64,000 nt of DNA from Candidatus Omnitrophota bacterium (GCA_035292445.1 DATDQB010000013.1:82132-146131); one strand, 5' to 3'; counted from the stretch's first letter, positions 1 to 27,587 are shown. Numbers and translations are program-made. Notes: generated from the letters alone by a model not told the origin.

Positions 1-3000
1 AGCATCCACACCTTTGACTTGCCTGTAGCTTCATCATACACAACGGTAAATTCCATATCCTGAACGTCGCGCCTGTTTTCCTCCAAATAAGCACCGATAA
101 GCCGGATATGTTTGGCCACCTCCAATAAACGTTCCATCAACCGATCGAAATTCAGGATTTCTTCCTTCCCTAAACTGCCATCGACAACTGCCTCTCCTTG
201 GGCATTGAAAGCAAAATCGATATTAAACTCTTTTGTCCCATCCCCCATGTCTCTGGTATGGGCAACACCTGTACCGGAATAATCGTTCAGATTTCCCAAA
301 ACCATTGATTGAATAGTAACGGCCGAACGTCCTTGTTCCGCCGTTAAGGGCGGATCCTGATTTGCTCTATAAACAATGGCCCGTTCATTATTGCTTGATC
401 TCATAACGGCCACAACCGCCCCTACCACCTGCTCATCAATATCCTGTGGAAACTCCAAACCTCTATCAGCCAATATCTGCTTAAACGTTCTAATAAGTTC
501 TTTTTGGGCTTCGACAGAAAGTCGGCTCTGATTCGATACCCCTTCTCTTTCAAGCATCCTTTCTTTCACCAACTTAAAATTGACCGGACTATTATCAACT
601 TCTTCTTCGATACCTAAGACCGTTTGACCGTACATTTCAATAGCGCGGGCATAACTTCCCCAGGCGCTTCTCTCATTGGTCGCTTCAACCAAAGCTTCAA
701 CCGTTTCATCGTTAAGACCTAAATTTAAGACCGTTTCCATCATGCCCGGCATGGACTCTGGGGCCCCGGAACGGACAGAAACGAGATGAGGAATGCCTTC
801 TCCCTTTCTAGCCCCCCACACCGTTCCCATGGACTGCGCTTGAACTCGAACAAGTTGTTTAATACGTTCTACAAGTTCGGATGATAATTTTCCTGTCTCA
901 CCCTCCTCAAAATGTAGCGTCTGCTCTGTGGCTACCGTCCCGGCCAGAGGAACGCTAATCGGATATTTACCGGCTAAAACATCTTCTCTTGTAATGCCAA
1001 ATCTTGCTAACCATGCCGGATCATCGGCATGGGCCTTTTGCCACTCTAAAAATGCTCTTGCATCATCATGGGCCATTTCAGCTAAATTGGCGCCCTTTCC
1101 TCCCAATACCATCTTCATTTTCACATTCCCTTTAGGCAGCTGGCGATCGATATCGGCGCCATAGTTGCCAACAAAATAAATCGGCGGATGCTCATCCCCC
1201 TCGAACGCCTCGGTGCCGGCGAGCATAGCGGAATCTTCCGGAACAAAAGCGCTCAAGCTCACCCCAATGGGCAACCCCCGCTTGTTCGGCCAAAGCATGG
1301 GTTCTCTGGTGGTCTTCAAACCGGCAAGAACAACTGCCAAATGATATTCTTCGTAAGGCAATATATACTGACCAGGCCAATGCGTTCCCTGATAGGCCGG
1401 AGCCAGCGTCTGCTCCAGCGCCATGGGTTGATTGATATCATTAGGAACCTCCTCAACCAATTGGTTAGCGCGCGGCTTGTGCAGCTCCAAAAGCCGCATG
1501 TGGTAATTCGGCCTGCCGGGTTCTTTTTCTATCCATCGCCTGAGGAAATTAATGAAATCAGCGGCAACCACATAACCAGGGAGCAAACGTCCCTGCGGTT
1601 CATCATCGCTGTACGAACCCTCAAATTGGGAAATGACCAACTGTGTCAACATCTCTTCATCGGAAGGAATATCATTTTCTTTTATGCCCAACTTTAATAA
1701 CGCTGCCGTTAAACGCGAGCGATCAACGGATTGAACGGCGCGACGAATAATTTCTCTGGCCTGATCTCTATCCTTTATTTTTAAACGTCTTTCATGAGGA
1801 ATAAACTCCTCGGTGTGGACAAAATCATCTTTGTCATAACCGCTAAGACCTATGGCATCCAATCGAGCCTTTAAATCCTCATTAAAATCTTCCGGGTCCG
1901 TAACATCGGCCCACATCACAATAACATGCAGCCCCTCAATGCCATCAAACTCCGCCATGGTGTCACGTTCCCGCCCCAAGGCCGCTTCATTGAAATCGGA
2001 AACCACAACCACCAACGGATGCGTTTTCAGATTCTTTCCGCGATCGGTGTACTTAAGAATATAACGGGTAACATCCCTTGCCAATTGAGCATCTCCGGAT
2101 CCCATATTGAAGAACCCGACAGACTGTTTATTTAAAGGTGTATTGTGATAAAGGTCGCGCACAAAGGTAAGAATACCGTCTTTAGTAATCTCTCCCGTCT
2201 CTTCATCAAATTCTCCCATATACGCATGATGCGCGCCGGAGGAACCCCAGATATCTTTGACCCGCCCGAATCGTCCCATGTGTTCATCGCTGTTTAGATT
2301 CAGCCGATTGGGATCACCGAACAAAAAATCCTCGAGATGAGCATCAATCAATGAATAAGCATCTGTCACGCCGTAAGAAGTGACTTTATCAAAAAAGGCT
2401 CTTCCCTTGTCTGTCAGGCTTACGAGTTGTTTATCAGCTTTAACAAGACCCTGCGCGTGCAGAAGCCGGAAAGCCTCATAAATAAAACCTTTGTTAAACT
2501 GTGCCGGCAGACGATCAAAAAAGAGATACCCGTTTTCATCAAACAACTCAAGAATGGAAGGGCCGATCTTGCTGATGATCCGATTTTCTATATTAAAAAA
2601 AGGCATCCCTAAAGAAACCATGACAGGGCTCATGAGCATTCCAATAAAATAGGAATGGATATGAATCAGGCCGCGCTGCAGGACAGGCATGGGCAACTGC
2701 GAAGAAAGCTTGGGTAAAACGATTTTGACCATTTCTAAATCTTGTTGATCCAACTCACTGGCAAGAATATTAAATATTTCAGAATATTCACTGTAATTTT
2801 TCTTCTTTAAGCGTTCAATAACACGTGTATATCTTTCGACCTTATCAACCAACTCTATAAATTCATCGTACGCCTTATGCACATCATCGCCTTTCCTTAT
2901 TGGCGGCCCCCGGCGAAAATAATCATGATATTCCAAAGCATTGGCTATGGCCCCATCAAAGGTTTCTAAATAACCCACTTTCGCCAGCTCGACCATCAAC

Positions 3001-4793: not shown

Positions 4794-4924
4794 AAATCCT
4801 GCCCTTTTGTGAATAGTTAATAGTAAATCGTAAATAGTACAATACACAATTAACTATTGATCATTAACTATAAACGACTATTTCTTTTTGGGATTGAATG
4901 CAGTGCTTCCGGATGGAAATGATT

Positions 4925-4940: not shown

Positions 4941-5096
4941 CAGGATTTTTTGAATAATTATCTATTGATAATTATGACTAAATTATATCACGCGAAAAGG
5001 CAATTGCAAGCCCGGGAAAGGGTTTTCTTTTTATATAACATGTTGATATTAAATAAGTTGTGTGAATGTTGAAAAAAATCAGGATAAATAAAAGAA

Positions 5097-8000
5097 TTAA
5101 TTCAAGAGGCTGACCTTTTCAGGTTCTTTGGCTTGGACGTCAGGATTCAATCCAAATTCGTTTTCCTCTTCTTCCCCGCCCAATCCCAACAATAACGGCA
5201 GGTTCGTGACCGGTGTCACGTTAATGATGATGGGAATAAAGCCTTCGATGTGCATCTGTTGGATGGGCTGCTGGTTCATCGGCAGCGGAATGCCTTTGTC
5301 ATCGCGTTTAATTTGCAAATCTAAAAGTGCGGGGTTCAGATCGATACCACCGACCGGCCCCTGGTCTTGCGCCAACTGGGCGCCATCGGCTGGGCCTATA
5401 GCTCCTTCAACAGCACCTTTTAATTGAACAATAGTAAACGGCTTCGCCAAAATACCCAAATAATCTGAGGAACCCGCTACTTCGGCAGAAGGCGCTCCTT
5501 CATAATAACCGGACATGAGCTGCACCTTGATGCCGGGATGATTCCTGACAACATGGTCTGCCAGACTAAATCCGGTTTCATCCGGCATCACAATATCCGA
5601 TAAGACTAACACAAATTCCTGCTGAGATAATTGCTCTCTTGCTTCGGCGGCACTGGAAACAACCGTTACTTGATAACCAGCTCGCTCCAAAATCCGTCGG
5701 GCTACATTGCCCACAGATGCTTCATCATCCACCACGAGAACCCGCCGTGTTACCATCGCATTATCACCGTGGACGAAATCAGCTTCTATAAACCCACGTA
5801 ACGTTTCGCCGAAGGCTTCATCTTTTGAAATGACCCGCTTGATATCACCGGGCGACGCGGCTTGACGGTACAATTCCTTGGATGCTGTATCCCCAGCCCC
5901 AAAATCTCCAGACATCAAGATGACCGGAATATTGGGGAAATTAACATCCGCGACCCTTAGATCTGCCAGCGCTCTCGTTAATGCTATACCGCTGATCCGC
6001 GGCATGTTCAGATCTGTTAATATACCTGCAAAACGTGTCGGATTAGCTCGAATAATATCTAAGGCTATTTTCCCATCTTGGGCAACAACAACTCGGTAAC
6101 CCAGGCCTTCTAACATCTCTTTAAAATCTTCTCTTAAACCCGCATTGTCCTCGACAAGCAAAATCTCGCCCGTCACCATGGCTTGATCGGCGGATCCGAA
6201 GACTTCAGCGGCCATGGCCGAATCTCCAGAAACACTTCTTTGATTTCCGTCTCGATCAAAATAATAAAAATGCGTTTGTTGCCTCACATCTATTATAAAG
6301 ACAATAGGATAAACAAAAGCCCTGCCGCCAACATGACTGACATAAAATTCCCGCCTCTCGTTCACGGCCCTTAAAACACCCTCGCGTTCAACAAGAATGG
6401 AATCCGGAATCACGGCTTCCTTCAGAGGAAGCTCTTCCCCTAATTGGGCCAATATAACGCCCATTTTCTTGACCATTTCAGAATAAGCTTTAACGATAAA
6501 TCGAATATTGAGTAATTCGACCGGCCTTCTTAAAACAGAAAGATTCGCTTCCGTAACGTTCTGGATATCCATCGACTCTAACTCTCGCGTTGCTTCACTG
6601 ATGGTGGTGAGCAATTCATCGTCCTGAATTTGCGCATCCAGGGCGATATCTGACACTTTAGTGTAAACATTTTCTATCGATGATTTCTGCGCCCCCCTAT
6701 CTCCTCTGGTTTGACCGCGTAAAACTCTATCAGCCGCGATGTATTGTTTCATAATATCCGCGAACCTTAACAATTGTTCTCTTACTTCCGGGACGTCTTG
6801 AACACCGACGCCATAAAATGTAGCGCGAAGCTTCCTCGCCCGCTCAAAATCTTGGTCCCCTATCATCGCCGCGTCAGCCACTTGCGAGTCTGTCGAGACG
6901 TCGCTTGATAAAGCTTCTAATTGTGTTTCGACCATAGGAATATATTTAGTAATATCGGTTGCACTTAATAATAAAACCTGTGCTTGTAAAGCTAACCTTT
7001 CAGCTAATCCAAAATTCTGCGACTTTTGTTCAGCTATCCCTTCTTTCGTGACATTCGATGTGATCTGCGTATAAAATCGGATCGCTTGAGAAGTTCCTGA
7101 AGGGCGGATAGTGATATGATTTCTGCTATTAGTAAACGGGACCCCTGGCTCCAACGCTTCATCATCAAGAAAGAATCTAATGCCTTCATCCGGAAAACCT
7201 TCATAATGCTGAGCGTCATAACGCCCGGATTTGAATTCGACCGCGCCAATAATTCTTTGGCCAGATAAGACCCAAGGATTATCGGTTTGCGCCCGCGCAT
7301 TCGCTTCTTGCATCCATTCTTGAGCCTTCCTTAATAATTTAATTTTCTCCGTAATACCTTCAGCGCCTTCGAACGAGCCCACACGGGGCAAAGGCTTATT
7401 GGCTGTTGCATAATGACCGATCTGCATATAAATATCATCCAATAATTCGAATATCATTGTGCCCCGTTCTTTGGCGTAAGCTGCCACCTCTAACGCCAGG
7501 ATACCCGCAAAAACACCGTCTTTATCATTAACATGCCCGTCATCGGCTAAGATCTCTCCTTCGGCAACTGGCCCCCCCATAATGGAATAACCATTGGACT
7601 CTTCCTGCGATCCCTCATTGGTTAAACCCCGTTCACGCATCCTTTCAGCATACTGAGCTTGATACGTCATTCCCACCCATGCACGACGGCCGCTTAGATA
7701 ATCTCCCCTGTTCTCTTTTCCTGTCACATCCAACATCTCTCCGAGAGCTTGAACCCCGAACAAAGCCGCCACTTCCTCGATAGCATCTGTTGTAACATGG
7801 CTTAAACTAACAAAATGCTGCTGGGGATTCTCTAATAATCCCAGTTCTTTCTTTCTCATAAGCCTATACCATGTTAACAATGTCCAAAGATCATTTGCCG
7901 ACAATAAGCGATATTTGCCGAATAACTGCTGTTGGCTCTCAGGTACTTTGACAATCAGCCCTAAACGATCCGCATCGGGATCCGTTCCGATCAAGACATC

Positions 8001-12843: not shown

Positions 12844-12918
12844 CGTCCCTGTAGCTCAGGTTGGATAGAGCATTTGCCTTCTAAGCAAAGGGTCGCACGT
12901 TCGAATCGTGCCAGGGAC
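12844..12918 (+). tRNA. tRNA-Arg (anticodon TCT)
   Basis: Clean cloverleaf: acceptor GTCCCTG/CAGGGAC, D-arm GCTC-AGGTTGGATA-GAGC, anticodon stem TTTGC/GCAAA with loop CTTCTAA (anticodon TCT), T-arm GCACG-TTCGAAT-CGTGC, discriminator A. CCA is not encoded. Confidence 0.85.
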
Positions 12919-12999
12919 ATTCTTTCTTAGTATATGCTATGCCCTGCCCCGACGCGCTATTACATAGCGGTCGGGGTCCCGACCGAGGTGAAACCGAGC

Positions 13000-13074
13000 G
13001 TCGGGATAGCTCAGGTTGGATAGAGCATTTGCCTTCTAAGCAAAGGGTCGCACGTTCGAATCGTCCCGGGGTCA
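13000..13074 (+). pseudogene. Degenerate tRNA-Arg-like copy. Its 57-nt core (D-arm to T-arm) is identical to the upstream tRNA-Arg, but its acceptor-stem strands (GTCGGGA ... CGGGGTC) cannot pair and its T-stem has one mismatch.
   Basis: The core TAGCTCAGGTTGGATAGAGCATTTGCCTTCTAAGCAAAGGGTCGCACGTTCGAATCGT is repeated exactly. The 5' strand GTCGGGA instead pairs with the upstream TCCCGAC to form a separate hairpin. I could not fold a canonical cloverleaf. Confidence 0.5.
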
Positions 13075-14172: not shown

Positions 14173-14250
14173 GGTGGGTGTAGCGCAGCTGGTTAGCGCA
14201 CAAGATTGTGGATCTTGTGGTCGCGGGTTCGAATCCCGTCACCCACCCCA
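14173..14250 (+). tRNA. tRNA-His (anticodon GTG) with genomically encoded G-1 and 3' CCA
   Basis: G-1, then acceptor GTGGGTG/CACCCAC, discriminator C, CCA encoded. D-arm GCGC-AGCTGGTTA-GCGC. Anticodon stem CAAGA/TCTTG with loop TTGTGGA (anticodon GTG). T-arm GCGGG-TTCGAAT-CCCGT with one G-U pair. Confidence 0.85.
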
Positions 14251-17500: not shown

Positions 17501-20500
17501 TCGGAAGACCAGCATCTGTATCAATCGTAAATGTTTGACGGAATTTATCGGCATGAGATGTGGGTATCATATCCATAATCGCACGAAGGTTATCGATCCC
17601 CAAACCTTTTGGTTTAGAGAGCTTCTCGGGATCAAGGCCTTCACGGCTTGGCCGAGGGCTCTGTGTATCATCATCGATACCCCGATCAGTTTTATGGATA
17701 ATGCTTATCCCTCTTCCTTCCACGTGGGTGGCTAAAAGAGGCTTGTCTTCATCATCCACATAGCTGACGGATTCATCCTGGACAATAATGCCGCCAAAGA
17801 CATACTGGATGCCTGGGGCGGTATAGAACATCCTTCTCATTCTTTCGCGAAGAAGATAGTTCGCGCCGTCGACTTTATCAGCATCCGGATAAGCCTTTGC
17901 ATCCACTATCTTAAAACCGTATCTTTTAAGAAGTGCATTGCCTGTTGATGGAGACCCATCCGAAGCAAAGTAGTTACGGCCTCGCCCCGTCAGGCTTTGT
18001 ACTCTTTCACGAAGAAGGGTTTTTTGGACATCCGTCAACATCGCGTGATCTTCGTCTTCCGGGGGGTATTCCGAAATTGGTCTAGGCGGTAACACCTGGG
18101 TAGCGCCTGTGTCTAAATCATCTACTTCTTCCTGTTCTCCATCGACTACGGTGCCTACAGGGTTGGGGTCGCGGTTAATTTCATCCATTACTTGGAGCAA
18201 GCCTAAACCTAAACCTGAATTGACAATCAATGCTATAACGTCATCTTCACTACTCTCTCCCAATGAAAGAAGTCGATCATAGGCATCCTTGACCATGATT
18301 CTTCCAGCTAATAAATCTTCCAGAATTCGGTCAGCCGCCATCATGGCGCTGTCGCCAGAAAGCAATTGCTCACCCTGACCAATAAGACGATTGATTCGAG
18401 CTCTTTTTTCATTAAGCTCGGATGATCCCAATTCATCCGATAATTGGCCTATCTCCAAAAGAATCGCCCTTTGTCCAGCTCTCAATATATAGAGTTCGTT
18501 CTCGATGTCTTGTGCCGGTTCGGGATAAAAGGTTTCAGGTGCAGCGAAGCGCTCCTCAATGTGATCAAGGCTGACATCCTCCAAGGGAAAAGCGACCTCA
18601 TCTGCTCCTTCCAAAGGCCTGATGCGACTGATCGCTCTCTTGAGCAACCCTTCTATCGTATGTCGGTCGGTTGTAAGTTGGGCTATCTGTTGCGCAATTG
18701 AACTTCTTTCCTCTGGTCCATCTTTGAGGCTACGCTCCCTGGTCCTTAATTGTGTAATACGGGTTCTTACGCCTATCAAGGAAATTCGCAATTTGTTGAT
18801 AAGATCCGCCAATTCATTAACAGACAGATCATGTTGTAACGCCGTTTCTTTTTCTGCAATCTGTCTATGTATTTCTCCCATTAAATCATCTTTGGCTTTT
18901 AATCCGGCCCGGTCTTTCATGGTATCGCCTTTACCACCCTCAAATGATATGGCGGCAGTTTCCCCTATAGCAACCGATGTCATGAATTCCAGCCCTCTGT
19001 TGCCGGCAAAAACCTGCGGGTTGATCGACATGCCGCTTTTTTGCTTACGGCCGATCTCTTGCCACTGGGCCAGCCCGTCCATACCGTCCCTTAAATATCC
19101 CCCTTTACCGTCAGTCCCTTGCAAAAACTGCATGGTAGCGGCGTGTAGGAATGTGGATCCGCCGTAGGTGATAAAATTGAACTGGGAATATTTTCCCTGT
19201 TCCGGCAGAAATGCCTTTCTTTCTTCCGGCGTCATTAGACGACTCCCATCCTCGGTTTTGGCAAGCGGCCAATAAAAGGACGGCGACGTGTTATTTGCTT
19301 TTATTCTGGTTGTCGCATCCAGTAAACCCACGGCATCATCATGAGCTAGGTCTAACTCTTGAAGCGCTTTTAAGGCATATGAATAACTGTCCGGATCAAC
19401 TGGCCGGTTATTGTGATATGTTTCGATAATTTTCTCTACCTGAGTTTTAATTCGATCTCGAAAAGCCTGATCAAATCTTTCAAGAATTTCGTCATACCAG
19501 CCTTCGGCAAACAATAAGCGTCTGGCTTCCGCATCCAGGGCGGTTGACCACTGCTTGACTTCGCCAATATGCGGATGGTGCTGCTCAAACCAAGAAATGT
19601 CCGTATATGGCAAGGCTGATTTGGAACGGGCAATGGCCATTTCCATGCCGCTATTGATCATCCAAATGGTACGGCTTCTCTTCTCTACCGAACGGGTGAG
19701 CTGGAAATCCCATAATACGTTGATCGTGCCTGAGAAAGCTTCAGGCGCTTCATCCACCAACTGGATTTGACTGCTGTCGATGAGGCGAATTCCGATCTCT
19801 CTGGCCTTTGCTTTTACCAGATCGAAAAATCTTACGTCTCTTTCATAAGGTATAGCCGCAACAAAAGCTCTCCATTCTTCAACCGTCATACCAATCTTAT
19901 CCTGATTTGCGGCGATAGTTCTTGCCACAATTTCATCGATCGTCAAAAGATTGGCCATGATCTTCCATTGATTATGGACCTTTTGTAATTCGGAAGCCTC
20001 TAGCCCTGATTGATTGGCAGCCGTGATAACATCTTGATAGGTTTGGACCCTACCTTTGCTATCGTGAATCAAAGGTATATACTTCTGCCAGTCAGATCTA
20101 AACCGGGTGATTGTTGCCGCTATCTTTTCAGCCGGCATTTTTTTGGCAACCAGGTCTTTTTCCAATGCTTTGACTGCTTCTTCCAGACGTTCAGCTTCAT
20201 CGGCCTCAGTAACACCAAGAATAAATTTCTGATCACGTCCGTCATCATGGCCCGTGATCCATTCGGCCGATTCGGCATCGGTCCGGGCAACGATCAACGT
20301 ATTAAGACCCATGCGGTCAAACTCAAAACGGGCCTCAAGAAGTGTTTTGATCCAATGATCCGTACTATCGAGGACTTTGCCGCTCATATGCCCGCACATT
20401 TTACATCCGTGAGCTTGATCTTCAATGTGGACTGCGGCGATATGTGTTTCTTCCTCGCCCATTGACAGAACCCTTCGTGCCATCTCCTGGACCTTTAAAT

Positions 20501-23500
20501 GTCCTTCGTCAAAATCAACAAAGATAGGCACGTAGAAATCAACCGGTCTAACAAGAGAACGTTGTTCAGGCGTCATTTGGGCCCTGGCGATCTCCTGATA
20601 AATGGCATGCCATGTATTTAGCTTTGAGATCCTGGCAGCCAGTATACCCAAATAATCATATTGGTCCCGGGCACGGTCTCCTTTGCCTCTGAGCATTTGT
20701 GCATCCCATCCACCCAGATAATAGCCTTCAATATGCTTAAACAAATTCTGTTGCAGAAGAGCGAATATAATGCCGGATCTTTCTTTGAAAGCGTCATCGA
20801 TCCTTTCGTAATATTCCTGCTTTACATTCTCCATCATGGAGAACGAATCCTGAATAACACCCGTTTCAGCATCGATGAAGCCTAATGATGCTAAATGATT
20901 ATACAGGGCATCAACTTCATAATCATAAGCCACATCTAATAATTTTGTCTTTGTGATAGGTTCGGCTTGAAGAATTTCGGATACAGCCATGGCTTCGGCC
21001 ATCAATTCATTGCTAGGGCCGAAGGTATCGATGGATTTTACATCCCTGAAATACCTTCGCAGCTTGCCATTAAATTTCTCGGCCATATGGTTGGCGATCG
21101 ACCATGTTCTTAAAACAGGGCCTTGCGCAGCCGCGACTTTTTCTGCGCTCCAAACACGCTTGATCCAGCGGCCTTCGGCTCTTTGCTGGTTCCATCGCTC
21201 CTGCATGATTTGCGCTCGTTCTTCTAAAGAAGCCACCATCGCCGCATCGCCGCCCATGCGGGCAACCATGCCGCCTTCAGGTCCGGGTATATTCATCTGG
21301 GCAACTAACGCTTCATATCGCGCCAACACTTCAGGGCTAAGCGCCCCTGTGAAACGCTCTTTCCCCACCTCGATCATAGCCCACACGTCTCTTAATCGGC
21401 TTGAAACTGTCCCTTTCACATCTCCAAAGGTCGGCACCTCGTTATAGCGTTCTTCAGGATCTCTGGAACGGGCCCATTCCTCATCATTCTTGTCTTTTAT
21501 TTTTTCCCATCTTTTAATTAATCCCGCCAATTCATCTGGAAGTCTGGCAAGTTGCTCGATAGCCGATTTTCTATCCACACGATTGAGCTTATCGACACTC
21601 ACCTCTTTGCCTAAAAGAGCCGCTAAAAACGCTAATTCTTTCTCAGCCCTATCAAGATCCGCTTCTACTTGCGCTTCATACATCCCGCCTGGAAGCGCTC
21701 TGTCATATTGCGCTTTAAATCCTGCGACGCTCTGTAATAACCAATTAAAATACTCCTCGGCAACGGCCCTAGCATCCACCGCCATCGCCGCGTCACCTTC
21801 TTTGGGAGTTCCCTTCTGATCTCTCTCCCTCAATGACGCTATTATACCTCTCATATGTTTTTCAGAAGCAGCGGGTTCTTCCGGTACTAACTCACCACTT
21901 AAAGGATCTCCCCTGACAAACCTGGGTCCAAGTTCCGGCGCCCTATCTTTATCGCTGGCCGCCATCGCCGCGGCTGAAGTTAGTGAAGTTATCCTTTCCC
22001 GTATCTCTCGAATGGCCAGTTCGGTTTGTTCCTTTTCACCTTCCAGCCCCTCGACAATGACGACCTGATCTTGATATTCCACTAATTCATTTCCAATTTG
22101 TCCTAAACGCTTTTCCAGTTCTGCGATGGCACCTCGAAGCTCATCCGCCGTTCGGTATCCTTCCTCGCTGGTAAGAACGGCTTCTAAAATCCTGACCGCC
22201 CCCATCGCATTATCAATGCTGTCATCCCATTGCGCTCTTGTCCGATCAATTGTTTCCTCAAGCACTCTTTCCTCTTCCAATAAAGACGGTAAATCACCAA
22301 TGTCTCCATCTTCATATTTTGCTTTTTCTATTCTTTCTCTAACTTGAGCAAGTCGATCAATCGCGCGAAACCATTCTTTTTGGGCAGACTCATCCCCCAC
22401 CATCGCCGCGTCGATTGGTTCTTGAGAAGTCCCGCCTCTTTTTCCAAGGTGACCCATTTTTTTACGTTGAGTAAAAAGTATATCCCCTGCCGCGGCGTCA
22501 ACGGCCCGAAACATATTATCAAATGTTTCCCCATAAGCTAATTCGGCGATACGATGAGGATCCATCCGTAATTTATCCAATCTTTCAAATCCAACACTGT
22601 CCAAATTTTGTAGAATACTCGATTCAGGATAGTAGCTTCTTCTTCGCGAGTCATCGAAATCGGCTATTTTACTCAAAATATAACTGTTAGAAGCCTCTTC
22701 ACTTTGTAATCGATCTCTGAATCGGTATAAGACCCTCCTTCGCTCTGGCTCCATTAAACTTAAATAATCTAACGCCCTTGTAACTTTATCTCTTAACTGT
22801 AAATCATCAAACTGGGAAACAAAACGTTTTGCATTCTTCGGAAATTGATTACTAATACGCATAGCCCGAAAGTCTAGGGAAATCATACCTTCAATGACCG
22901 AATAGTCCTCAATCCTATCCAAAAGGATCCGTGTTGAGAAATAATCAGACAGGATCATAGCTTCAAAGATATCGGCATCCCTGTATCTTTCTGTTACCGC
23001 CATCGCCGCGTCGGTTTCCGCCACAGAGACAACCGTCTTTTCAACAAGTCTTTCTAAAGTCTCCGTAACTTCTTTAATTTTGCGTTGCAGGGGTCCTATT
23101 TTATCTTGATCATAAGCGGCAAGGGTTCTGAAGCTCAAAACGTCACCGGAACTGCGAGGTATTAAGATTCGGTAAAAGGTCTGAATCGCTTCTTGGGCTG
23201 TCGTTAAAGGTACATTTTGACCGCCTGAATCTCGAATGGCCCTTTGAAGCGTTTGAATCATCTCCAACAACCCAACCCCTTCTTCTCTGATTCTAGCGTC
23301 TTCAAAAGCTACTACCATTTCTTTAAGTTCTTCCAATTGCGCCGCCACCATCGCCGCGTCACCTTCTTTGGGAGTTCCCTTCTGATCTCTCTCCCTCAAT
23401 GACGCTATCATGTCTGTCATATGTTCTATAGAAGCAGGTTCTTCAGGTACTATCTCACCAGTTAAAGAATCTCTCCTGGCAACCCTGGGCCCCAATTCCG

Positions 23501-26500
23501 GCGCCCTGTCATCTGACTTTCCAGCCGCCATCGCCGTGTCGATATAATTCCCATCACGTAGCGCATTGGCTATTTTTTCAAGCTGCTCTTCAATAATTGA
23601 ATTTGACGCCTCCTCGCCTTGAGGATTAAAAGGAGCATACCCCGCAGCAACCGTTTGTAATCTTTCTTGCAAATTCAAAAGTTCTGCTCTCGTCAACACG
23701 CCGCTTTCCACTCGAATCTCTTCTTCCGGCGTCAACATCGCCGCATCGGCAAGCTGGAACGGAGCAAATAAAATTCGCCGATCATACAGGTTGTCCGCAT
23801 TATCGTGGATAGCAAAAAATCGTTTCAACTTTCTTTTTACATCAATTAATGTTCTGTCATCAAGGGTTGTGTTAAAAACAATGGATTCATGAAGCACCAT
23901 ATTCTTTGAAGTGATAATGCTTTTATTGATTTCTCTGGCAATGGCGATATCTTCATCGCTAAATCCCGATTCCATATATCTGGCCTGGGTATTTCTAGCG
24001 ACTTCATCCATAATTTGGCTTAAATATTCCCATGTAATGATTGTGCCTGTATCTGGGCCTTCCTGCACCTTGGCCCCCGATTTAATCAACGTCCACAGCC
24101 AATATTGGGCTTTCTTGGCCGTAGCTAAATCAAACATGGTTCTTCCGCCATTATGCAAGTTGTCTACGGCAACAGCCGCTCCTTGTTTTCGATAACCTAG
24201 CGTATATGTCAGCAGTTCATATAAGTTCTTATATATTTCAGCTCTCGCTATATTTCCCTCTGGAACATGTAATAAATCGGCATATAACCCTTCATTATAA
24301 ACAGGCGGCGCCACTTCCATTTCTTCAACATCGGCTCGGAAGATTTCGTTTTCTTTGGGAATGGCGATTGGTGTCGCTGCCCAAGCTTGAAGTTTGCCTT
24401 GTTTGCGTTCATCTATTTTGTCACCTATAAATCCTGTGGTAGCTATTTCATCCGCGGCCGGGTCCATCGGCGCTCCATCTGGATATCTGCGTGAGGTCAT
24501 TCCCGTCCACATGCCGCCTTCAGGATGAACACCGCGTTTTTTACTGGCCGATAAATTAAGGCCTGTATAAGGTCTAAACGGTTTGTCTTTCATGCCTATT
24601 TTATCCAATCCCGGCCATACGCGTTTCTTCAAAAACCAAGCGAGTCGTATCGCTGAAGCACCCCAATCCCAACGTCCATCATTCGAAAACTTGATATGAT
24701 GGCGGCCTGCCCAGAACATTAATTCCAGCATTAATGTCGCCTCTTCGACTTCATGCATAAAAATAAGATTGATCTCTTCTTTAAGACCTAAAAACTCCTT
24801 TGTTTCAATGGCCGTCTCCACAAACAATTTTACTTCTTCCCAATGCTCCAATTTCGGCACAACAATATCAATGCCTTGTCTCGGATCGGCTTCTAAAGCC
24901 TCGAAATTAGGTTCAACATAATACGCCAAGTCTCTCATCATCATTGATACCGGCATACCCTTATAGGATTCATGCCGTGACCACAATTGCAATCCGCTTG
25001 GCCTTTTTGTTACTGTCGGCCAATATTTCCTGGGTAATACTCTATAAATTTTATTTTTGTCTCCATGTTTTACGCTCTTGAGTCTTCCGTTAATAATATC
25101 GGCACCGATTTGGTGTTCGGCAAACCTTTTGTCACTATCTATTCCAGCGGCATCTTCATCGTCACCAAAGATTCTTACAGGTCTCATCGCTTCTATATAT
25201 TCAGCTATCGCTGGATTACCCTCAATAATTGCTATGATTTCTTCATCAGTTTTTTCCTTTAAACTTATTCCAAACTTCTTTTCCACTTCATCCAATACAT
25301 TTGACCCAAACGCACTCAAGGCAAAAAATAGATTCCATGGACCTGACAATATGCCGCCTGCTTTTGTTAACCTTTCTGGCGCTTCGTCGACTTTCCAATC
25401 CCCTTCTAATATTTCACGCACGGTCAAAGTATTTCCATACGCATCGCTCACCTTATCATCCATATTAGGAATATAAGAATTTTCTCCGCGCTCAGCCGCG
25501 TTTATTCTTTCCCCGCGTTTCTTTAATAACTCGAGCTGCCGCTCGCCGAACTTCTCCATTAAATGCGCTATTAATGCCTGGCTTCGCGGATTTATGATTT
25601 TTCCACTTCCGACATCTCCTTCAAATTCGCTTAAATCTACGGCCTGTCCTTTTTGATCCAACACCTCTCTAATATCTAAATCCTCTACGCCCGCCACCAT
25701 CGCCGCATCGCTGGTCGTCAGCAGCCGGATGTGATCAGGCTTATCTGAATAGTCATCGAATAGTAATGCCTCATTGCGGATGAACGGAACAATATAGGCG
25801 TGAGACGATTGGAACTGCACTTTCGGTTTAACGAGCATGATCTGGCCTTGATTCGCGGGGACATCTTCCCGGCGGAACACGGGCAGCTTATCAAAGTCAG
25901 GATGGACAACAATTCTTGATGCCAGAGAGCGCGCGACCCTTTCAATGATATCCTGGTATCCTTTTAAACGTTTATAGTCATCCGATATGGTTGGTATCCT
26001 GCCCAGAACAACATCTAATATGCTCCAGTAAATTTGATAATCAATAAGGTCTTGAGCTTCTCTGTAAACGGAATTAAACCTACCATTGACTTGACTGATG
26101 GCAGAGTGAACTCTTCGACGGACTATGGTAATGGTATTTAAATGGCCTTCCGTAATGGGAGTGATCCCGTGGCGTTCCGCCACCTCCAATAACTCCTTTA
26201 GATCATCCGCATTCGGCGGTTCTTCTCGCCATATTTCCGGCCTGCGCGCAAGACGCTGCTGGCGCTCAGCATCCGTTGCGGTGGACGGATCTGTAATGAC
26301 CGCCTGGTCGGCCAACCGGCTGCTAGCCTCATCGACCGCCAATTGGGCGCTGTCACCGGCAATTGTTTCTAATAAATCAACATCCGTATCAAAAAAACGG
26401 CCCGTGGGGGAAGAAGCATTGATAACCTGCTGTTGGACAGCCTCAGGAAATTGGCCTAAATCGCCTTCTATTTCGGCTACCAACATCGCCATGTCCCTGC

Positions 26501-27587
26501 CATCAACGCCCCCTGAGAAATATTTACGCGGGATGATGTCTTTTGTCGCCGGGTCATAGTCTTCCCTAATAAAGTTATAGACGCCTTTCTTGAAGGCATC
26601 GAGGTATTGCTCATAGATCTTATTCTTGGCGTCCTTATCTTCAATATCAATGCCGCGGATCTTGTTTTTGTCCACGTAAACCTGGCCTAAAAGAGAATTT
26701 TTCAGGTTCATCTTGTACCACGTCGCCAAGATCATGGAACTGTAGATCTGGCGTAAACTGGCAAACGTCTTGCCTTCATTGACTTCCTTTTCGATCTCGG
26801 GGATAACAACATCCTTAAGAATCTGGGATTGGATGGAGCTCATTTCAGTCGTCAGTCGTCGGTCGTCAGTCGTCAGTAACTGATGACTGACGTCTGATGT
26901 CTGATGACTTAATGCCAAATAGTCTTCCTCCAGCATGACCTTCAAATGGCTTTCAACGACAAAAGCGGTGCCGTTATTTTCATACACCAGCGCGCGGTCA
27001 GGGACGATCCATACCTTATTAAAGGTATTCATCGGGATGTTGGTCGTGCCGAATTTCTCGTAGGCCTTATCTTTGACGCGTTGCCAGAATTCTTTGCCCA
27101 GCTCCTGATCGGGGTGGATCAAAGACGCCGTCAATTGTTTGAGGATATAATCCTGCGCTAAAAGGTCGCGGCCCATTTCGGTCGTACCAAAAGCTTGGGG
27201 AATGATACGGTCTTTCTCATAAGGGGAAAGATTTACCCAGAGTTCTTTTTCGGGAACGGTCAGGGAAGCCAAGAAGTATTTAACTAATCTATTCGCTTCT
27301 TCGCGAAGCTCTTCGCCCTCGAGGCTCGTATGGCCAGTATCAACAATAAAATTAAAATGTAGGGGATTAACGGGATCGATCGTGATGCCTTTGACCATGG
27401 CCGGCATAAAGCCAGGGCTTGGGGAAACCATCACCCCCGGAGCCGGTAAATTAAGATATGTGGGTACGCCTTGGGCGTAAACGGATGCAGGCGGCGTGAC
27501 AGAGCTAAAGATAAAGGTAAAGGCGATAAAAGCGGATAAACCTTTGTGGAATCGGGTATTTCTTCTTCGCTCGAGAAAGCTTATCAT
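14589..27587 (-). CDS. Giant multi-module secreted protein, paralog C (4332 aa): signal peptide, conserved N-module, unknown modules, malate synthase-like module, repeated linker modules, isocitrate lyase module, unknown and coiled-coil region, class I fructose-bisphosphate aldolase module, possible GlpX-like module, conserved C-module.
   Basis: A 13 kb uninterrupted ORF with AGGGGGA upstream of the ATG at 27587 and signal peptide MISFLERRRNTRFHKGLSAFIAFTFIFSSVTPPASVYAQ. Malate synthase motif: HHIKFSNDGRWDWGASAIRLAW. ICL signature: HIEDQAHGCKMCGHMSGKVL plus LIVARTDAESAEWITG and YYLGGWDAQ. Class I FBA motifs: GRGRNYFASDGSPSTG, LKGSAIKVSMVTSGD (Schiff-base Lys context) and IVFLSGGQTADQAARNLNAIVKEAKRVGAPWRYAASFSRA. 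The C-terminus is VGGIDLNPALLNLQIKRDGRGIPLP...GFIPVIINIAPINNMPMLLGI. Confidence 0.85.
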   Translation of the reverse strand: MISFLERRRNTRFHKGLSAFIAFTFIFSSVTPPASVYAQGVPTYLNLPAPGVMVSPSPGFMPAMVKGITIDPVNPLHFNFIVDTGHTSLEGEELREEANRLVKYFLASLTVPEKELWVNLSPYEKDRIIPQAFGTTEMGRDLLAQDYILKQLTASLIHPDQELGKEFWQRVKDKAYEKFGTTNIPMNTFNKVWIVPDRALVYENNGTAFVVESHLKVMLEEDYLALSHQTSDVSHQLLTTDDRRLTTEMSSIQSQILKDVVIPEIEKEVNEGKTFASLRQIYSSMILATWYKMNLKNSLLGQVYVDKNKIRGIDIEDKDAKNKIYEQYLDAFKKGVYNFIREDYDPATKDIIPRKYFSGGVDGRDMAMLVAEIEGDLGQFPEAVQQQVINASSPTGRFFDTDVDLLETIAGDSAQLAVDEASSRLADQAVITDPSTATDAERQQRLARRPEIWREEPPNADDLKELLEVAERHGITPITEGHLNTITIVRRRVHSAISQVNGRFNSVYREAQDLIDYQIYWSILDVVLGRIPTISDDYKRLKGYQDIIERVARSLASRIVVHPDFDKLPVFRREDVPANQGQIMLVKPKVQFQSSHAYIVPFIRNEALLFDDYSDKPDHIRLLTTSDAAMVAGVEDLDIREVLDQKGQAVDLSEFEGDVGSGKIINPRSQALIAHLMEKFGERQLELLKKRGERINAAERGENSYIPNMDDKVSDAYGNTLTVREILEGDWKVDEAPERLTKAGGILSGPWNLFFALSAFGSNVLDEVEKKFGISLKEKTDEEIIAIIEGNPAIAEYIEAMRPVRIFGDDEDAAGIDSDKRFAEHQIGADIINGRLKSVKHGDKNKIYRVLPRKYWPTVTKRPSGLQLWSRHESYKGMPVSMMMRDLAYYVEPNFEALEADPRQGIDIVVPKLEHWEEVKLFVETAIETKEFLGLKEEINLIFMHEVEEATLMLELMFWAGRHHIKFSNDGRWDWGASAIRLAWFLKKRVWPGLDKIGMKDKPFRPYTGLNLSASKKRGVHPEGGMWTGMTSRRYPDGAPMDPAADEIATTGFIGDKIDERKQGKLQAWAATPIAIPKENEIFRADVEEMEVAPPVYNEGLYADLLHVPEGNIARAEIYKNLYELLTYTLGYRKQGAAVAVDNLHNGGRTMFDLATAKKAQYWLWTLIKSGAKVQEGPDTGTIITWEYLSQIMDEVARNTQARYMESGFSDEDIAIAREINKSIITSKNMVLHESIVFNTTLDDRTLIDVKRKLKRFFAIHDNADNLYDRRILFAPFQLADAAMLTPEEEIRVESGVLTRAELLNLQERLQTVAAGYAPFNPQGEEASNSIIEEQLEKIANALRDGNYIDTAMAAGKSDDRAPELGPRVARRDSLTGEIVPEEPASIEHMTDMIASLRERDQKGTPKEGDAAMVAAQLEELKEMVVAFEDARIREEGVGLLEMIQTLQRAIRDSGGQNVPLTTAQEAIQTFYRILIPRSSGDVLSFRTLAAYDQDKIGPLQRKIKEVTETLERLVEKTVVSVAETDAAMAVTERYRDADIFEAMILSDYFSTRILLDRIEDYSVIEGMISLDFRAMRISNQFPKNAKRFVSQFDDLQLRDKVTRALDYLSLMEPERRRVLYRFRDRLQSEEASNSYILSKIADFDDSRRRSYYPESSILQNLDSVGFERLDKLRMDPHRIAELAYGETFDNMFRAVDAAAGDILFTQRKKMGHLGKRGGTSQEPIDAAMVGDESAQKEWFRAIDRLAQVRERIEKAKYEDGDIGDLPSLLEEERVLEETIDRTRAQWDDSIDNAMGAVRILEAVLTSEEGYRTADELRGAIAELEKRLGQIGNELVEYQDQVVIVEGLEGEKEQTELAIREIRERITSLTSAAAMAASDKDRAPELGPRFVRGDPLSGELVPEEPAASEKHMRGIIASLRERDQKGTPKEGDAAMAVDARAVAEEYFNWLLQSVAGFKAQYDRALPGGMYEAQVEADLDRAEKELAFLAALLGKEVSVDKLNRVDRKSAIEQLARLPDELAGLIKRWEKIKDKNDEEWARSRDPEERYNEVPTFGDVKGTVSSRLRDVWAMIEVGKERFTGALSPEVLARYEALVAQMNIPGPEGGMVARMGGDAAMVASLEERAQIMQERWNQQRAEGRWIKRVWSAEKVAAAQGPVLRTWSIANHMAEKFNGKLRRYFRDVKSIDTFGPSNELMAEAMAVSEILQAEPITKTKLLDVAYDYEVDALYNHLASLGFIDAETGVIQDSFSMMENVKQEYYERIDDAFKERSGIIFALLQQNLFKHIEGYYLGGWDAQMLRGKGDRARDQYDYLGILAARISKLNTWHAIYQEIARAQMTPEQRSLVRPVDFYVPIFVDFDEGHLKVQEMARRVLSMGEEETHIAAVHIEDQAHGCKMCGHMSGKVLDSTDHWIKTLLEARFEFDRMGLNTLIVARTDAESAEWITGHDDGRDQKFILGVTEADEAERLEEAVKALEKDLVAKKMPAEKIAATITRFRSDWQKYIPLIHDSKGRVQTYQDVITAANQSGLEASELQKVHNQWKIMANLLTIDEIVARTIAANQDKIGMTVEEWRAFVAAIPYERDVRFFDLVKAKAREIGIRLIDSSQIQLVDEAPEAFSGTINVLWDFQLTRSVEKRSRTIWMINSGMEMAIARSKSALPYTDISWFEQHHPHIGEVKQWSTALDAEARRLLFAEGWYDEILERFDQAFRDRIKTQVEKIIETYHNNRPVDPDSYSYALKALQELDLAHDDAVGLLDATTRIKANNTSPSFYWPLAKTEDGSRLMTPEERKAFLPEQGKYSQFNFITYGGSTFLHAATMQFLQGTDGKGGYLRDGMDGLAQWQEIGRKQKSGMSINPQVFAGNRGLEFMTSVAIGETAAISFEGGKGDTMKDRAGLKAKDDLMGEIHRQIAEKETALQHDLSVNELADLINKLRISLIGVRTRITQLRTRERSLKDGPEERSSIAQQIAQLTTDRHTIEGLLKRAISRIRPLEGADEVAFPLEDVSLDHIEERFAAPETFYPEPAQDIENELYILRAGQRAILLEIGQLSDELGSSELNEKRARINRLIGQGEQLLSGDSAMMAADRILEDLLAGRIMVKDAYDRLLSLGESSEDDVIALIVNSGLGLGLLQVMDEINRDPNPVGTVVDGEQEEVDDLDTGATQVLPPRPISEYPPEDEDHAMLTDVQKTLLRERVQSLTGRGRNYFASDGSPSTGNALLKRYGFKIVDAKAYPDADKVDGANYLLRERMRRMFYTAPGIQYVFGGIIVQDESVSYVDDEDKPLLATHVEGRGISIIHKTDRGIDDDTQSPRPSREGLDPEKLSKPKGLGIDNLRAIMDMIPTSHADKFRQTFTIDTDAGLPTQRNIEANMEMLAQHVLDVQLLGRVPTPEPEVLIKGSHDIEASAEANRRILKVYTEAASRLGVDLKGSAIKVSMVTSGDKAPKDTPEEVARATVAVHMDSLPPELGTIVFLSGGQTADQAARNLNAIVKEAKRVGAPWRYAASFSRASKETALTVLNGDFVNEQAAQNEFVRASFRIQAASLGVMDEYDALIERIGVEAFVARVDVYGRMVQVNIDNEQLGQMIRDFDAAMAAQPNKEEATRLRAIRDELPVILTTHTAAKLTALGLRGAYQKILDVVKSVSDTSEQRTQIALLFTQLHQTTQRGEFAEVAIMVLGKEGTIAKDELKRMQTAITDVVDGFAKRIFERTIKELGIIMMVRVSEGFGRDEVAESLKSNEVIMPNLIQHEVEAIKAAIDRGDEFYLSENGRYYPILDAIIDVVEGTNQFVTNSGNRSLEEAPENEAGANSDIVVGRGVRDLGNVPDGYVHQFITNVGEDADALRAAAVEVGGEKYHLYDPELYAAHPKEGILAYLKFLAAIRRQELSQVQEEIIVMNRKRETAFVRAIEEVKQEYGIQGVSVVQKTLQDGTVAHGLRATLTPALYEAATGRSYGVHKTVITVGGSAEGFMNLAIAGAAKYIGAVAGVRVYNAKMNKNAAGEELPDLSERYNFKLAEASELRVIRESYGDAGAILNGQKFFTEQDVKGDVVGIFTVIANDWVFGQTGTQATEGGQTSVVIKIYNVGNELKAEIFPVEVDHTIVSIDAAMTEQGDGAMLTPAEAWEIAEDLLEEMGDEELFGDRVGLLARLIHYLDGKELSTPLSEDAPDLYSKGDLTRATHINSARDFKVREIKFRRIIREFLEGQLIVNFPSEEEDVSSSAGIDRAVTAQETTPVGGIDLNPALLNLQIKRDGRGIPLPVEMQPLQNIHIDGFIPVIINIAPINNMPMLLGIADFIPDEPIEQAQDEEEKAPALSMRKFTLRDVLDRIAIFKG
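21780..21985 (-). repeat. Internal ~200-nt direct repeat within giant gene C, copy 1; the other copy is at 23340..23550 (~88% identical). Each encodes a duplicated ~65-aa linker segment.
   Basis: CCATCGCCGCGTCACCTTCTTTGGGAGTTCCCTTCTGATCTCTCTCCCTCAATGACGCTAT... occurs at both loci. The protein copies are AAMAASDKDRAPELGPRFVRGDPLSGELVPEEPAASEKHMRGIIASLRERDQKGTPKEGDAAMAVD and TAMAAGKSDDRAPELGPRVARRDSLTGEIVPEEPASIEHMTDMIASLRERDQKGTPKEGDAAMVAA. Confidence 0.8.
26845..26925 (-). repeat. Hairpin-forming short tandem repeat (TCAGTCGTCAG/CTGATGTCTGATG units) inside the N-module of gene C; a homologous insertion sits at 4050..4125 in gene A.
   Basis: Gene C has CAGTCGTCAGTCGTCGGTCGTCAGTCGTCAGTAACTGATGACTGACGTCTGATGTCTGATGACT. 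Gene A has GTCATCAGTCGTCGGTCATCAGTCGTCAG...CTGAAGACTGATGTCTGATGTCTGATGACTGAT. Both are imperfect inverted repeats built from 8-11-nt units. They encode SDVSHQLLTTDDRRLTTEMSS and SDISLQSTHENLTTDDRRLMTQ, which are absent from paralogs B and D at the same position. Confidence 0.7.

Follow-up and report, generated by a model that had tools for sequence, protein, structure and literature searches.

Four tandem genes in a 64,000-nucleotide stretch of a Candidatus Omnitrophota genome (GCA_035292445.1, DATDQB010000013.1:82132-146131; hereafter the window, with positions counted from its first letter) encode proteins in which variable cargo is held between conserved terminal modules, behind a Sec-type signal peptide. 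The four paralogues, here named A to D, lie on the minus strand in the left 31 kb of the window, as judged from open reading frame (ORF) calls. The predicted protein sequences give good support to the view that they belong to an exported-type family and that their cargo here is a selected block of glyoxylate-shunt, gluconeogenic and hexose-activating enzymes delimited by short junction peptides. The best explanation for the locus as a whole, which we hold at about even weight, is a framed enzyme set kept together by selection; that it would also be exported and work outside the cytoplasm of the producer is a part of this reading to which we give somewhat less weight.

Four paralogues in a conserved export-type frame

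Gene A (positions 1-4793) is partial in the window, which contains its N-terminus (at 4793) and the first 1597 of its 4030 residues, the C-terminus lying beyond. Genes B (5097-12530, 2477 residues), C (14589-27587, 4332 residues) and D (27900-31268, 1122 residues) are complete ORFs, and all coordinates of modules given below refer, like these, to the minus strand. The source genome was viewed through one contig of 149 kb (ENA ERZ27254861 k141_2268053); full-length A was recovered from the source contig and a second contig (L004, L087; L and P numbers denote loci and proteins, respectively). Because identical copies of the B protein are found on four independent contigs, and the A and C proteins are database entries of 4 and 3 member sequences, respectively (C as P0259), we conclude that A to C are not assembly artefacts.

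The frame consists of a Sec-type signal peptide, an N-module of ~330 residues, variable cargo and a C-module of ~60 residues. The N-module region (~330 residues) is 50-65% identical among A to D, and a C-terminal region of 60-70 residues is common to B, C, D and full-length A, with the C-module consensus GGIDLNPALL.LQIKRDG.G.PLP...QP......I.GF.PVIINI.P..N.P.LLG. Two motifs are hallmarks of the family, WVNLSPYE in the N-module and GGIDLN...GF.PVIIN near the C-terminus, and A to D have both modules. In gene C the signal peptide and N-module span 26496..27587 (residues 1-364) and the C-module spans 14712..14894 (residues 4232-4292). Gene D has the same signal peptide and N-module and a divergent C-module, and Pfam finds no recognisable domain or enzyme in its cargo.

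All four N-termini combine a basic n-region, a hydrophobic core of ~16 residues, a proline-rich c-region and the sequence A-x-A/Q (the slash marking the predicted cut), an arrangement conserved across the family; in C the last part reads PP..VYA/Q. On inspection, aided by simple statistics, the N-terminus shows the full set of traits expected of a cleavable Sec signal. No transmembrane helix is seen in A to D beyond this N-terminal hydrophobic segment.

The family is large. With B as query, 2506 proteins are matched at E<=1e-10, and the first 200 residues of the N-module give 1142 database hits. In species-representative genomes the N-module is present at 592 loci or more, with several copies in a genome, which often stand in tandem. 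Among full-length relatives the N-module motif is present in 118 of 119 and the C-module motif in 116 of 119. Relatives of the window proteins are labelled Candidatus Omnitrophica or Omnitrophota in databases; those N-module record titles that name a phylum give Omnitrophota, many others being the generic 'uncultured Planctomycetales'. Among the matches found, the family is confined to Omnitrophota. A model of the N-module (predicted local distance difference test, pLDDT, 76.5) has no fold match in the PDB. The Ser of WVNLSPYE and the Lys of an LKQ motif are invariant in the N-module, which might conceivably hint at a protease of Ser/Lys type.

Very small members also exist. P0021 (322 residues, L001:10001-10969) is a cargo-free minimal member made of an N-module and a C-module, and its neighbours are toxin-antitoxin genes, a 2529-residue family member (NDK, GT5, GT1) and a 14,390-residue protein. 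P0010 (243 residues, L002/L003) is an N-module alone; the proteins matched by short queries were all about as long as the query, being fragments and stand-alone N-modules. A MAFFT misalignment had hinted that the C-module might be a copy of the N-terminal hairpin of the N-module, an idea rejected on an hhalign probability of 4.9% over 10 aligned columns.

Glyoxylate-shunt and gluconeogenic modules of gene C

The original prediction, made from the DNA sequence alone, had named a series of enzyme modules on A, B and C, and Pfam and PDB matches place each of them where it was said to be, on three intact minus-strand ORFs. The order in gene C is signal peptide and N-module, an unassigned segment, malate synthase (MS), a helical spacer, isocitrate lyase (ICL), class I fructose-bisphosphate aldolase (FBA), a GlpX-like module and the C-module.

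The MS module (23748..25700, residues 630-1280) comprises the TIM barrel and the C-terminal plug. It matches the Pfam MS_TIM-barrel at E=1.4e-22 (80 bits against a cut-off of 26.4), with a weak MS_C match (PF01274 / PF20659), and malate synthase A in the PDB at E=2.5e-15. The motifs T.R (with its Arg), PK.E, N.GRWD and M.D.AT are invariant across five Omnitrophota MS modules that are only 31-35% identical. By their correspondence to E. coli residue numbers, we take these motifs to contain the catalytic Arg, the Mg ligands (E, and the D of GRWD) and the catalytic Asp of the plug.

The ICL module (18354..21239, residues 2117-3078) is of the long, ICL2/eukaryote-like type. Pfam ICL (PF00463) matches at E=8e-37 (127 bits against a cut-off of 26, with one further stretch), and the module aligns to the M. 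tuberculosis ICL2 structure in four collinear stretches (E=4e-37). The motifs DxDxGH, HIEDQ, ARTDA, SPSF and FNFITYGG are retained, Mg ligands included. Between MS and ICL lies the helical spacer (21249..23738, residues 1284-2113), which has no family match and carries eight copies of the junction motif D-x-A-M described below. The spacer contains an internal repeat of ~60 residues, at residues 1350-1413 and 1872-1935 (23349-23540 and 21783-21974), with the consensus ...DRAPELGPR..R.D.L.GE.VPEEPA....HM...IASLRERDQKGTPKEGDAAM; a D-A-A-M junction closes each copy.

The aldolase module (PF00274; 16821..18041, residues 3183-3589) matches Pfam Glycolytic at E=2e-36 and PDB entries down to E=4.6e-29. 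Aligned to plant and animal aldolases, and given the established residue roles in class I aldolases, it has equivalents of D33, K107, K146, R148, E187, K229 (the Schiff-base lysine), S271 and R303.

The last cargo module of gene C (15279..16811, residues 3593-4103) had been noted as a possible fructose-bisphosphatase (FBPase), a call that held up. The module gave no Pfam match at E<=1 and no PDB match by single-sequence search. A profile built from a 24-sequence alignment, when run against the PDB, matched class II FBPase/GlpX and FBP/SBPase chains only (E=2e-6 to 4e-5). An AlphaFold (AF2) model with a pLDDT of 94.5 folds as one complete domain, and the top 16 PDB hits of a Foldseek search with it are all class II FBPases (E=5e-14 to 6e-10, probability 1.00), with target-normalised template modelling (TM) scores of 0.62-0.71. 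On the strength of this model the module is of the GlpX fold, with an extra N-terminal helical bundle, and its FBPase role is putative. Three of the four metal motifs are kept, as SEGFGRDE, DVxEGT and GGSAEG. Among 1.84 billion representative proteins, 71 contain a homologue of the module, almost always as part of a long multidomain chain. It also occurs in P0274 (residues 911-1383) beside a four-domain PGM, and a fragment is present in P0250 (residues 1725-1793), a protein with a class II aldolase and GAPDH.

Hexose-activating, PPDK and other modules of genes A and B

Gene B encodes, in order, the signal peptide and N-module, an unassigned segment, a UDP-sugar pyrophosphorylase, a phosphohexomutase, a second unassigned segment, two receiver domains and the C-module. 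The pyrophosphorylase is a nucleotidyltransferase of the UDPGP family (PF01704; 9186..10976, residues 519-1115), matched by Pfam at E=1.4e-13 (50.8 bits against a cut-off of 22) and weakly similar to UDP-glucose pyrophosphorylases (UGPases) in the PDB (E~7e-5). It retains the motifs GGLGTS and KT..DKKGG and shares 54-56% identity with modules at L047, L054, L058 and L068. The alpha-D-phosphohexomutase (PGM/PMM) module (6876..9176, residues 1119-1885) matches PGM_PMM_I at E=1e-22 and PGM_PMM_II at E=1.5e-10, domain IV being weak; the phosphoserine loop SASHNP, the metal loop DPDADR and the phosphate loop RPSGT are all present. The two response-regulator receiver domains (5391..6179, residues 2118-2380) match Response_reg in two stretches (E=1.7e-31).

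Within the window, gene A encodes the signal peptide and N-module, an AprA-like methyltransferase (1746-3248, residues 516-1016, by Pfam) and the start of a pyruvate phosphate dikinase (PPDK; 3-1226, residue 1190 onward), of which the first ~400 residues are in view. The PPDK N-domain matches the PDB at E=3e-48. Full-length A, on L004 and L087, has a complete three-domain PPDK (PPDK_N, PEP-utilizers and PEP-utilizers_C) in which the phosphohistidine domain reads GGMASHAAVVARG and the PEP domain motifs RTEH, LLDPP, IETP, GTND and GCGE are all present. A change of VSCSP to VSGSP was considered as a possible loss of the catalytic Cys. This was rejected, the CGE motif, where we take the catalytic Cys to lie, being kept as GCGEQ. 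Beyond the window (L087:1464-13556), the PPDK of A is followed by a second PEP-utilizers_C-like stretch (residues ~2270-2725), a weak HD domain whose dyad HD reads HH (residues ~3490-3610) and a receiver-like segment (residues ~3795-3920).

Curated Pfam cut-offs are exceeded by the matches to MS_TIM-barrel, ICL and class I aldolase in C, to UDPGP, PGM_PMM_I, PGM_PMM_II and both receiver domains in B, and to the AprA-like methyltransferase, PPDK_N, PEP-utilizers and PEP-utilizers_C in A. Taken together, A to C contain complete homologues of seven enzymes (ICL, MS, PPDK, aldolase, the FBPase-like module, PGM and UGPase) in which nearly every catalytic residue is conserved. As far as sequence can tell, these modules are mostly not catalytically dead. 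Pathway modules account for ~46% of the residues of A to C. The remainder is made up of the N- and C-terminal regions, the methyltransferase, about four receiver-type domains, the weak HD domain, the second PEP-utilizers_C-like stretch, helical spacers and unassigned segments. The original description of the cargo as holding few unrelated enzymes was thus too strong, unrelated modules being interspersed. Pfam searches of the unannotated stretches at E<=1 (10 segments, then 7) gave tails of known modules, one weak HD domain and chance-level matches, and no extra enzymes.

Junction peptides at module borders

The tetrapeptide D-x-A-M, also picked out by the original prediction, is strongly over-represented. 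The four window proteins contain 25 such sites where shuffles predict 1.5, with a maximum of 6 in 500 shuffles, and the count rises to 33 with full-length A. The enrichment extends to relatives, with 128 sites against 13 expected in 93 proteins and 247 against 28.6 in 119 proteins. Most modules begin at such a junction, and for receiver domains, aldolase and ICL its Met falls where the native protein starts. A typical case is the D-H-A-M at 18039..18050 (C residues 3180-3183), the Met of which aligns with the native N-terminus of class I aldolase. Both receiver domains of B begin directly after a D-x-A-M, and the GlpX-like module is exactly bounded by two. In its extended form the motif is a small or polar linker followed by D-x-A-M-[LVIM]-[TAS].

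The Asp codons are split between GAC (13) and GAT (12), the codon for x varies freely, and the upstream sequence is GC-rich with nothing resembling a Shine-Dalgarno sequence. Because of the split Asp codons and the lack of a Shine-Dalgarno-like sequence upstream, selection is taken to act on the motif as a peptide. Two other origins, an internal translation start (a Shine-Dalgarno sequence and ATG) and a DNA-level recombination scar, were considered and rejected on these codon and upstream features, the latter of which differ from those of the real gene starts.

Family members that lack D-x-A-M have an alternative motif, [AS]SSP[VI], which is 44- to 80-fold enriched. Of 119 proteins, 41 use D-x-A-M (at least two sites), 29 use [AS]SSP[VI], one has both and 48 have neither. 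The two motifs occupy equivalent places in the frame: they directly follow the N-module in 26 of 31 D-x-A-M users and 17 of 22 [AS]SSP[VI] users, and directly precede the C-module in 19 and 11 of these users, respectively. A pair of lineage-specific motifs is what would be expected if the motif co-evolves with a cognate protease. The earlier suggestion of a polyprotein cut at D-x-A-M thus gains circumstantial support from the position of the motif at module starts, the selection on the peptide and the second motif in other lineages; the junction could alternatively be a structural cap or a modification site.

A recurring block of cargo enzymes

The cargo of the wider family was surveyed in the best 120 of the 2506 proteins matched by B and in 83 genome loci. 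For the counts that follow, we used the 105 relatives that match B through the N-module alone. Since the B query itself carries PGM and UDPGP, the top ranks are biased and the counts for these two are probably inflated. Central-carbon or sugar enzymes (glycolysis, gluconeogenesis, glycogen and sugar-nucleotide metabolism) are present in 50 of the 105, namely PGM (15), UDPGP (15), PGI (7), PGK (7), starch-synthase GT5 (5), ICL (5), MS (4), FBA (3), GAPDH, TPI, enolase, PEPCK and PPDK (2 each), and class I FBPase and hexokinase (1 each). Of the others, 11 have receiver domains only, 20 have other families and 24 have no match. The separate survey of the 83 genome loci gives the same picture. Further cargo in the family includes SNF2, WD40, acyl-CoA dehydrogenase, enoyl-CoA hydratase, glutamate dehydrogenase, GGDEF, CheR, HATPase_c, LysM and M48.

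Every MS-bearing relative found also carries ICL (P0273, P0312, P0313, P0322, L058 and L054). Within the 105, MS and ICL occur together in all four MS-bearing proteins while ICL is present in five, giving a hypergeometric probability of ~1e-6 that is less extreme if the close homologues P0312 and P0313 are counted once. Their partners elsewhere are PEPCK, TPI, class I aldolase or the GlpX-like module, in varying order. Where gene C reads N-?-MS-spacer-ICL-FBA-GlpX-C, P0312 and P0313 read N-PEPCK-MS-FBA-ICL-C, P0322 reads N-TPI-MS-ICL-C and P0273 reads N-ICL-MS-C; L058 has N-MS-FBA-ICL-C (with the same order at L054, in a fragment cut at the contig end) and L024 has ...FBA-TPI-ICL-GlpX-C. The PEPCK of the relatives provides the link from malate/oxaloacetate to PEP that the window is without. 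At L054 the gene adjoining the ICL/MS gene carries UDPGP and PGM, as in the window. At L058 the gene after the ICL/MS gene carries UDPGP, and the locus ends inside this module with any PGM beyond view. The same composition in shuffled order argues for functional coupling rather than chance and, on these sequence comparisons, selection appears to act on the enzyme set as a set. Of the originally proposed toolkit, deliberately assembled rather than randomly shuffled, the pathway theme stands, backed by the recurrence of ICL with MS and the conservation of catalytic residues; contiguity of the pathway and the scarcity of unrelated enzymes do not.

Surroundings of the array

Array members are separated by tRNA genes and a small opposite-strand DUF748 gene. 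The former are tRNA-Arg(TCT), tRNA-His(GTG) and tRNA-Pro(TGG), which stand between the paralogues or flank them; together with a weak, truncated tRNA-like match (33.5 bits) 90 bp past tRNA-Arg, they account for the features at 12845-12919 (+), 13007-13066 (+), 14174-14250 (+) and 31438-31514 (-). The weak match may be a remnant of recombination at tRNA genes. The DUF748 protein (323 residues, 13087-14058, +) is encoded between B and C, and an AsmA/DUF748/YhdP-like protein of 1033 residues (31531-34632, +) comes next after D; both belong to families of envelope-spanning lipid-transfer proteins. A DUF748 homologue also adjoins the orthologous loci L024, L047 and L054, with no general linkage to the framed family. 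A secretin gene (Secretin_N and Secretin) and a TPR-fused, Rce1-like (CPBP) intramembrane protease gene lie at 40049-43037 (-), ~9-12 kb from D. The remainder of the window holds ordinary chromosomal genes, among them those for RNase PH, QueC, a radical-SAM protein, an amidase, a secretin, RsmB, inositol-1-phosphate synthase, HemB, MetE, CysRS, Lgt and FolE2.

Outside the window, directly downstream of gene A, is a polysaccharide biosynthesis cluster (L087:13720-23556) with genes for a GFO/IDH/MocA oxidoreductase, a DegT-type aminotransferase, GT2, a polysaccharide deacetylase, DUF354, GT4/GT1 and an asparagine-synthase-like protein. Across 83 related loci no partner gene is conserved beside the family, DUF748, AsmA-like, secretin, Rce1-like protease and amidase genes each being found at three or fewer.

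Discussion

We propose that the enzyme kit would act outside the cytoplasm of its producer, at or within a host or prey cell, or in the lysate of such a cell, where it would turn C2 and C3 units into hexose phosphates and UDP-hexose. The junction motifs would then, most simply, be points of cleavage or of some other recognition, from which native-like enzymes are set free. In a survey of 176 complete Omnitrophota genomes, ICL and aceB (malate synthase) were scored in none and the tricarboxylic acid (TCA) cycle was fragmentary, while stand-alone GAPDH, PGK and enolase were found in all 176 (10.64898/2026.06.07.730766). This contrast favours a role outside the producer's own metabolism. The export signals, the need of the enzymes for ATP, UTP and acetyl-CoA, and a phylum reported to be without a glyoxylate shunt or closed TCA cycle together make the outside of the producer's cytoplasm the most likely site of action.

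A predatory or parasitic lifestyle has been proposed for Omnitrophota (PMC10066038). An effector package delivered into another cell, as the original prediction had suggested among its hypotheses, fits the combination of signal peptides with cytoplasm-type cargo. Action at or within a host or prey cell, combined with processing of the kit at its junctions, is plausible, yet somewhat short of probable. In its most far-reaching form, Sec-exported polyproteins throughout the phylum would carry whole sections of central metabolism, from the glyoxylate shunt and gluconeogenesis to hexose activation and glycogen synthesis, to the inside or the surface of host or prey, be cut at D-x-A/M or [AS]SSP[VI], and divert the victim's acetyl-CoA and C3 pool into sugars for an ultra-small predator. 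We consider this version unlikely; if true, it would amount to an effector system for metabolic reprogramming that has no described counterpart in bacteria.

Several points weigh against this explanation. Expression, export, processing, delivery and enzyme activity are predictions from sequence. The original prediction had seen a contiguous route from acetyl-CoA to UDP-hexose; this does not survive, as seven steps are supplied and about seven are missing, the window having no link from malate to pyruvate or PEP (MDH/PEPCK or malic enzyme) and no enolase, PGAM, PGK, GAPDH, TPI or PGI. The cargo of the family is very diverse, so the family is not a dedicated gluconeogenesis system. No protease or secretion system is conserved next to the family in the 83 related loci. 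The catalytic motifs are mostly kept, with deviations in four modules. The ICL catalytic loop reads KMCGH against the canonical KKCGH, which is carried by the ICL modules of L058, L024 and L054, with the first Lys, the Cys and the His kept; the UDPGP motif GHGD reads GHGQ; the aldolase E34 is replaced by Gly; and the DGD motif of GlpX reads DGT in the whole GlpX-like module family. In Pfam bits, the modules of the window reach roughly half the scores of the L058 and L024 orthologues, and constraint is therefore possibly relaxed in the source genome. Finally, stand-alone hexokinase and PGI are reported missing from most Omnitrophota genomes, stand-alone PGI being present in 67 of 176 (10.64898/2026.06.07.730766), so that cargo copies could be housekeeping enzymes with a cytoplasmic location.

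This last point leads to the rival that survives best, a membrane-tethered metabolon in the cytoplasm, in which the N-terminal segment serves as an anchor or is unused and the producer's own enzymes are fused for co-regulation and channelling. All cargo enzymes are of cytoplasmic type and depend on ATP, UTP or CoA; receiver, HATPase_c, GGDEF and CheR cargo is sensible only in the cytoplasm; the catalytic residues are conserved; and PGI, so often missing as a stand-alone enzyme, is frequent cargo. West-Roberts et al. likewise doubt the extracellular prediction for such domains (10.1101/2023.11.21.568195). What speaks for export instead is a textbook Sec signal, with its ~16-residue core, helix-breaking prolines and conserved A-x-A/Q, and the positive-inside rule, which when applied to the N-terminus places the bulk of the protein outside. 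ICL and MS would moreover have no obvious use given the fragmentary TCA cycle, GAPDH, PGK and enolase are cargo despite being ordinary genes in every surveyed genome, the modules are unusually divergent for housekeeping enzymes, and LysM and M48 cargo indicates an extracytoplasmic setting. We regard a cytoplasmic metabolon as possible but rather doubtful.

A second alternative accepts export and denies catalysis, the modules serving on the cell surface for ligand binding, adhesion or scaffolding, much as glycolytic enzymes are 'moonlighting' on pathogens. The export signals are compatible with this, as are the deviations of some motifs and the strong divergence of the modules, and adhesion and attack on cell walls are the roles preferred in published work on giant Omnitrophota proteins. 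Binding roles would not, however, predict the co-occurrence of enzymes from the same pathway, nor the retention of catalytic and metal residues in MS at 31-35% identity, in all the aldolase positions listed above, and at the His, Cys and Mg sites of PPDK, and we find the idea improbable.

We are equally sceptical of a surface-tethered or periplasmic supply of precursors for envelope or extracellular polysaccharide, the first hypothesis of the original prediction. The route does end in UDP-hexose, relatives carry starch/glycogen synthase GT5, GT1 and UDP-glucose dehydrogenase as cargo, and the polysaccharide cluster lies directly downstream of A. Yet there is no known source of ATP, UTP or acetyl-CoA outside the cytoplasm, and the glycosyltransferases of the cluster are ordinary stand-alone genes whose products are presumably cytoplasmic or membrane-bound; as the family has no conserved neighbourhood, the adjacency may be coincidence. 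Random domain shuffling in a fast-evolving family, to which the very diverse cargo, the 24 of 105 members without a recognisable domain and the unconserved module order could be ascribed, is the least credible reading; it is disfavoured because MS always comes with ICL, their partners are again gluconeogenic enzymes, a UDPGP+PGM gene adjoins the ICL/MS gene at L054 (and a UDPGP gene at L058), and central-carbon enzymes are found in about half of the members, far above their genomic share.

Omnitrophota are abundant, uncultivated and ultra-small, and are suspected predators or parasites with giant multi-enzyme proteins of puzzling function. The window adds a recurring block of glyoxylate and gluconeogenic cargo in a phylum where glyoxylate-shunt enzymes were scored absent in the 176-genome survey. 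If the enzymes act outside the producer, as we favour, they would represent a new form of host exploitation, in which metabolism is exported in the way that toxins are by other bacteria. If they act inside, reconstructions of Omnitrophota metabolism would need revision, with key enzymes hidden from orthology-based (KO) scans.

Comparison with known systems

The frame recalls proteins with a type IX secretion C-terminal domain (CTD) or an autotransporter barrel in its N-terminal Sec signal, variable cargo and short conserved C-terminal domain. It differs in that the C-module is ~60 residues with an acidic tail and is accompanied by a large N-module, and in that those systems are from other phyla; no Pfam match links the C-module to any known CTD or barrel.

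In MARTX toxins, effector modules lie between conserved ends and are freed by cleavage at short junctions after delivery into a target cell; their hallmarks are RTX repeats, a cysteine protease domain activated by inositol hexakisphosphate, and type I secretion. The Omnitrophota proteins, as read from sequence, are alike in being single secreted-type polypeptides with unrelated modules between conserved terminal regions. They are unlike MARTX in having an N-terminal Sec signal and central-metabolism enzymes, not toxins, as cargo, and Pfam detects neither RTX repeats nor a cysteine protease domain nor a type I secretion signature in A to D. With viral and bacterial polyproteins they share a short motif before each module, a next residue that coincides with the native N-terminus and a lineage-specific pair of motifs, the junctions here being candidate sites.

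Fusion of enzymes from the same pathway ('Rosetta stone') is a classical sign of functional linkage. The individual modules of A to C are homologous to ICL, MS, FBA, GlpX, PPDK, PGM and UGPase as known in free-standing form, most of them with intact catalytic residues. They depart from pathway fusions in the secretion signal, the N- and C-terminal frame, the long helical spacers, the non-adjacent steps and the strong sequence divergence.

The closest comparison is with the giant proteins of Omnitrophota themselves. West-Roberts et al. (2023) described 'Archaeovorins', encoded by a gene of >90 kb (>30,000 residues) with many transmembrane helices and a SecA_DEAD-like domain (10.1101/2023.11.21.568195), and a 2026 preprint defines a 'multi-enzyme metabolic cluster' class of at least 10,000 residues, tiled with many Pfam families of which none dominates (10.64898/2026.06.07.730766). 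TPI, GPI, FBPase, PGM/PMM, aldolase, PPDK, receiver, methyltransferase and NUDIX domains are listed for giant Omnitrophota proteins (10.1101/2023.11.21.568195; 10.64898/2026.06.07.730766). For these giant relatives, too, a signal peptide and extracytoplasmic enzyme domains have been predicted, the same paradox discussed and cleavage into pieces suspected. The kind is thus known, strings of enzyme domains in giant Omnitrophota proteins having been described already.

The proteins of the window share with the giants the phylum, the many enzyme domains per polypeptide and the predicted N-terminal signal peptide. They are not Archaeovorins, being smaller (1122-4332 residues) and having only the N-terminal hydrophobic segment, and Pfam finds no SecA_DEAD, C39, S8 or dockerin domain in A to D. 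They fall below the 10,000 residues of the metabolic cluster class, yet are tiled in its manner, with 3-5 distinct enzyme families per protein. ICL, MS and PEPCK are not mentioned in the 2023 and 2026 preprints on giant Omnitrophota proteins, and the N/C frame, the recurring ICL+MS block with its PEPCK, TPI, FBA or GlpX-like partners and the two alternative junction motifs, which were not found in the literature searched, appear to be what is new here. In the giants, N-terminal regions 'generally lack identifiable domains' and the cleavage points were unknown to those authors (10.1101/2023.11.21.568195), a gap that kept them from dissecting these proteins and that the candidate processing sites address. 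With its defined frame, clear module borders and confident GlpX-fold model, the locus offers a tractable, mid-sized version of the giant-protein puzzle.

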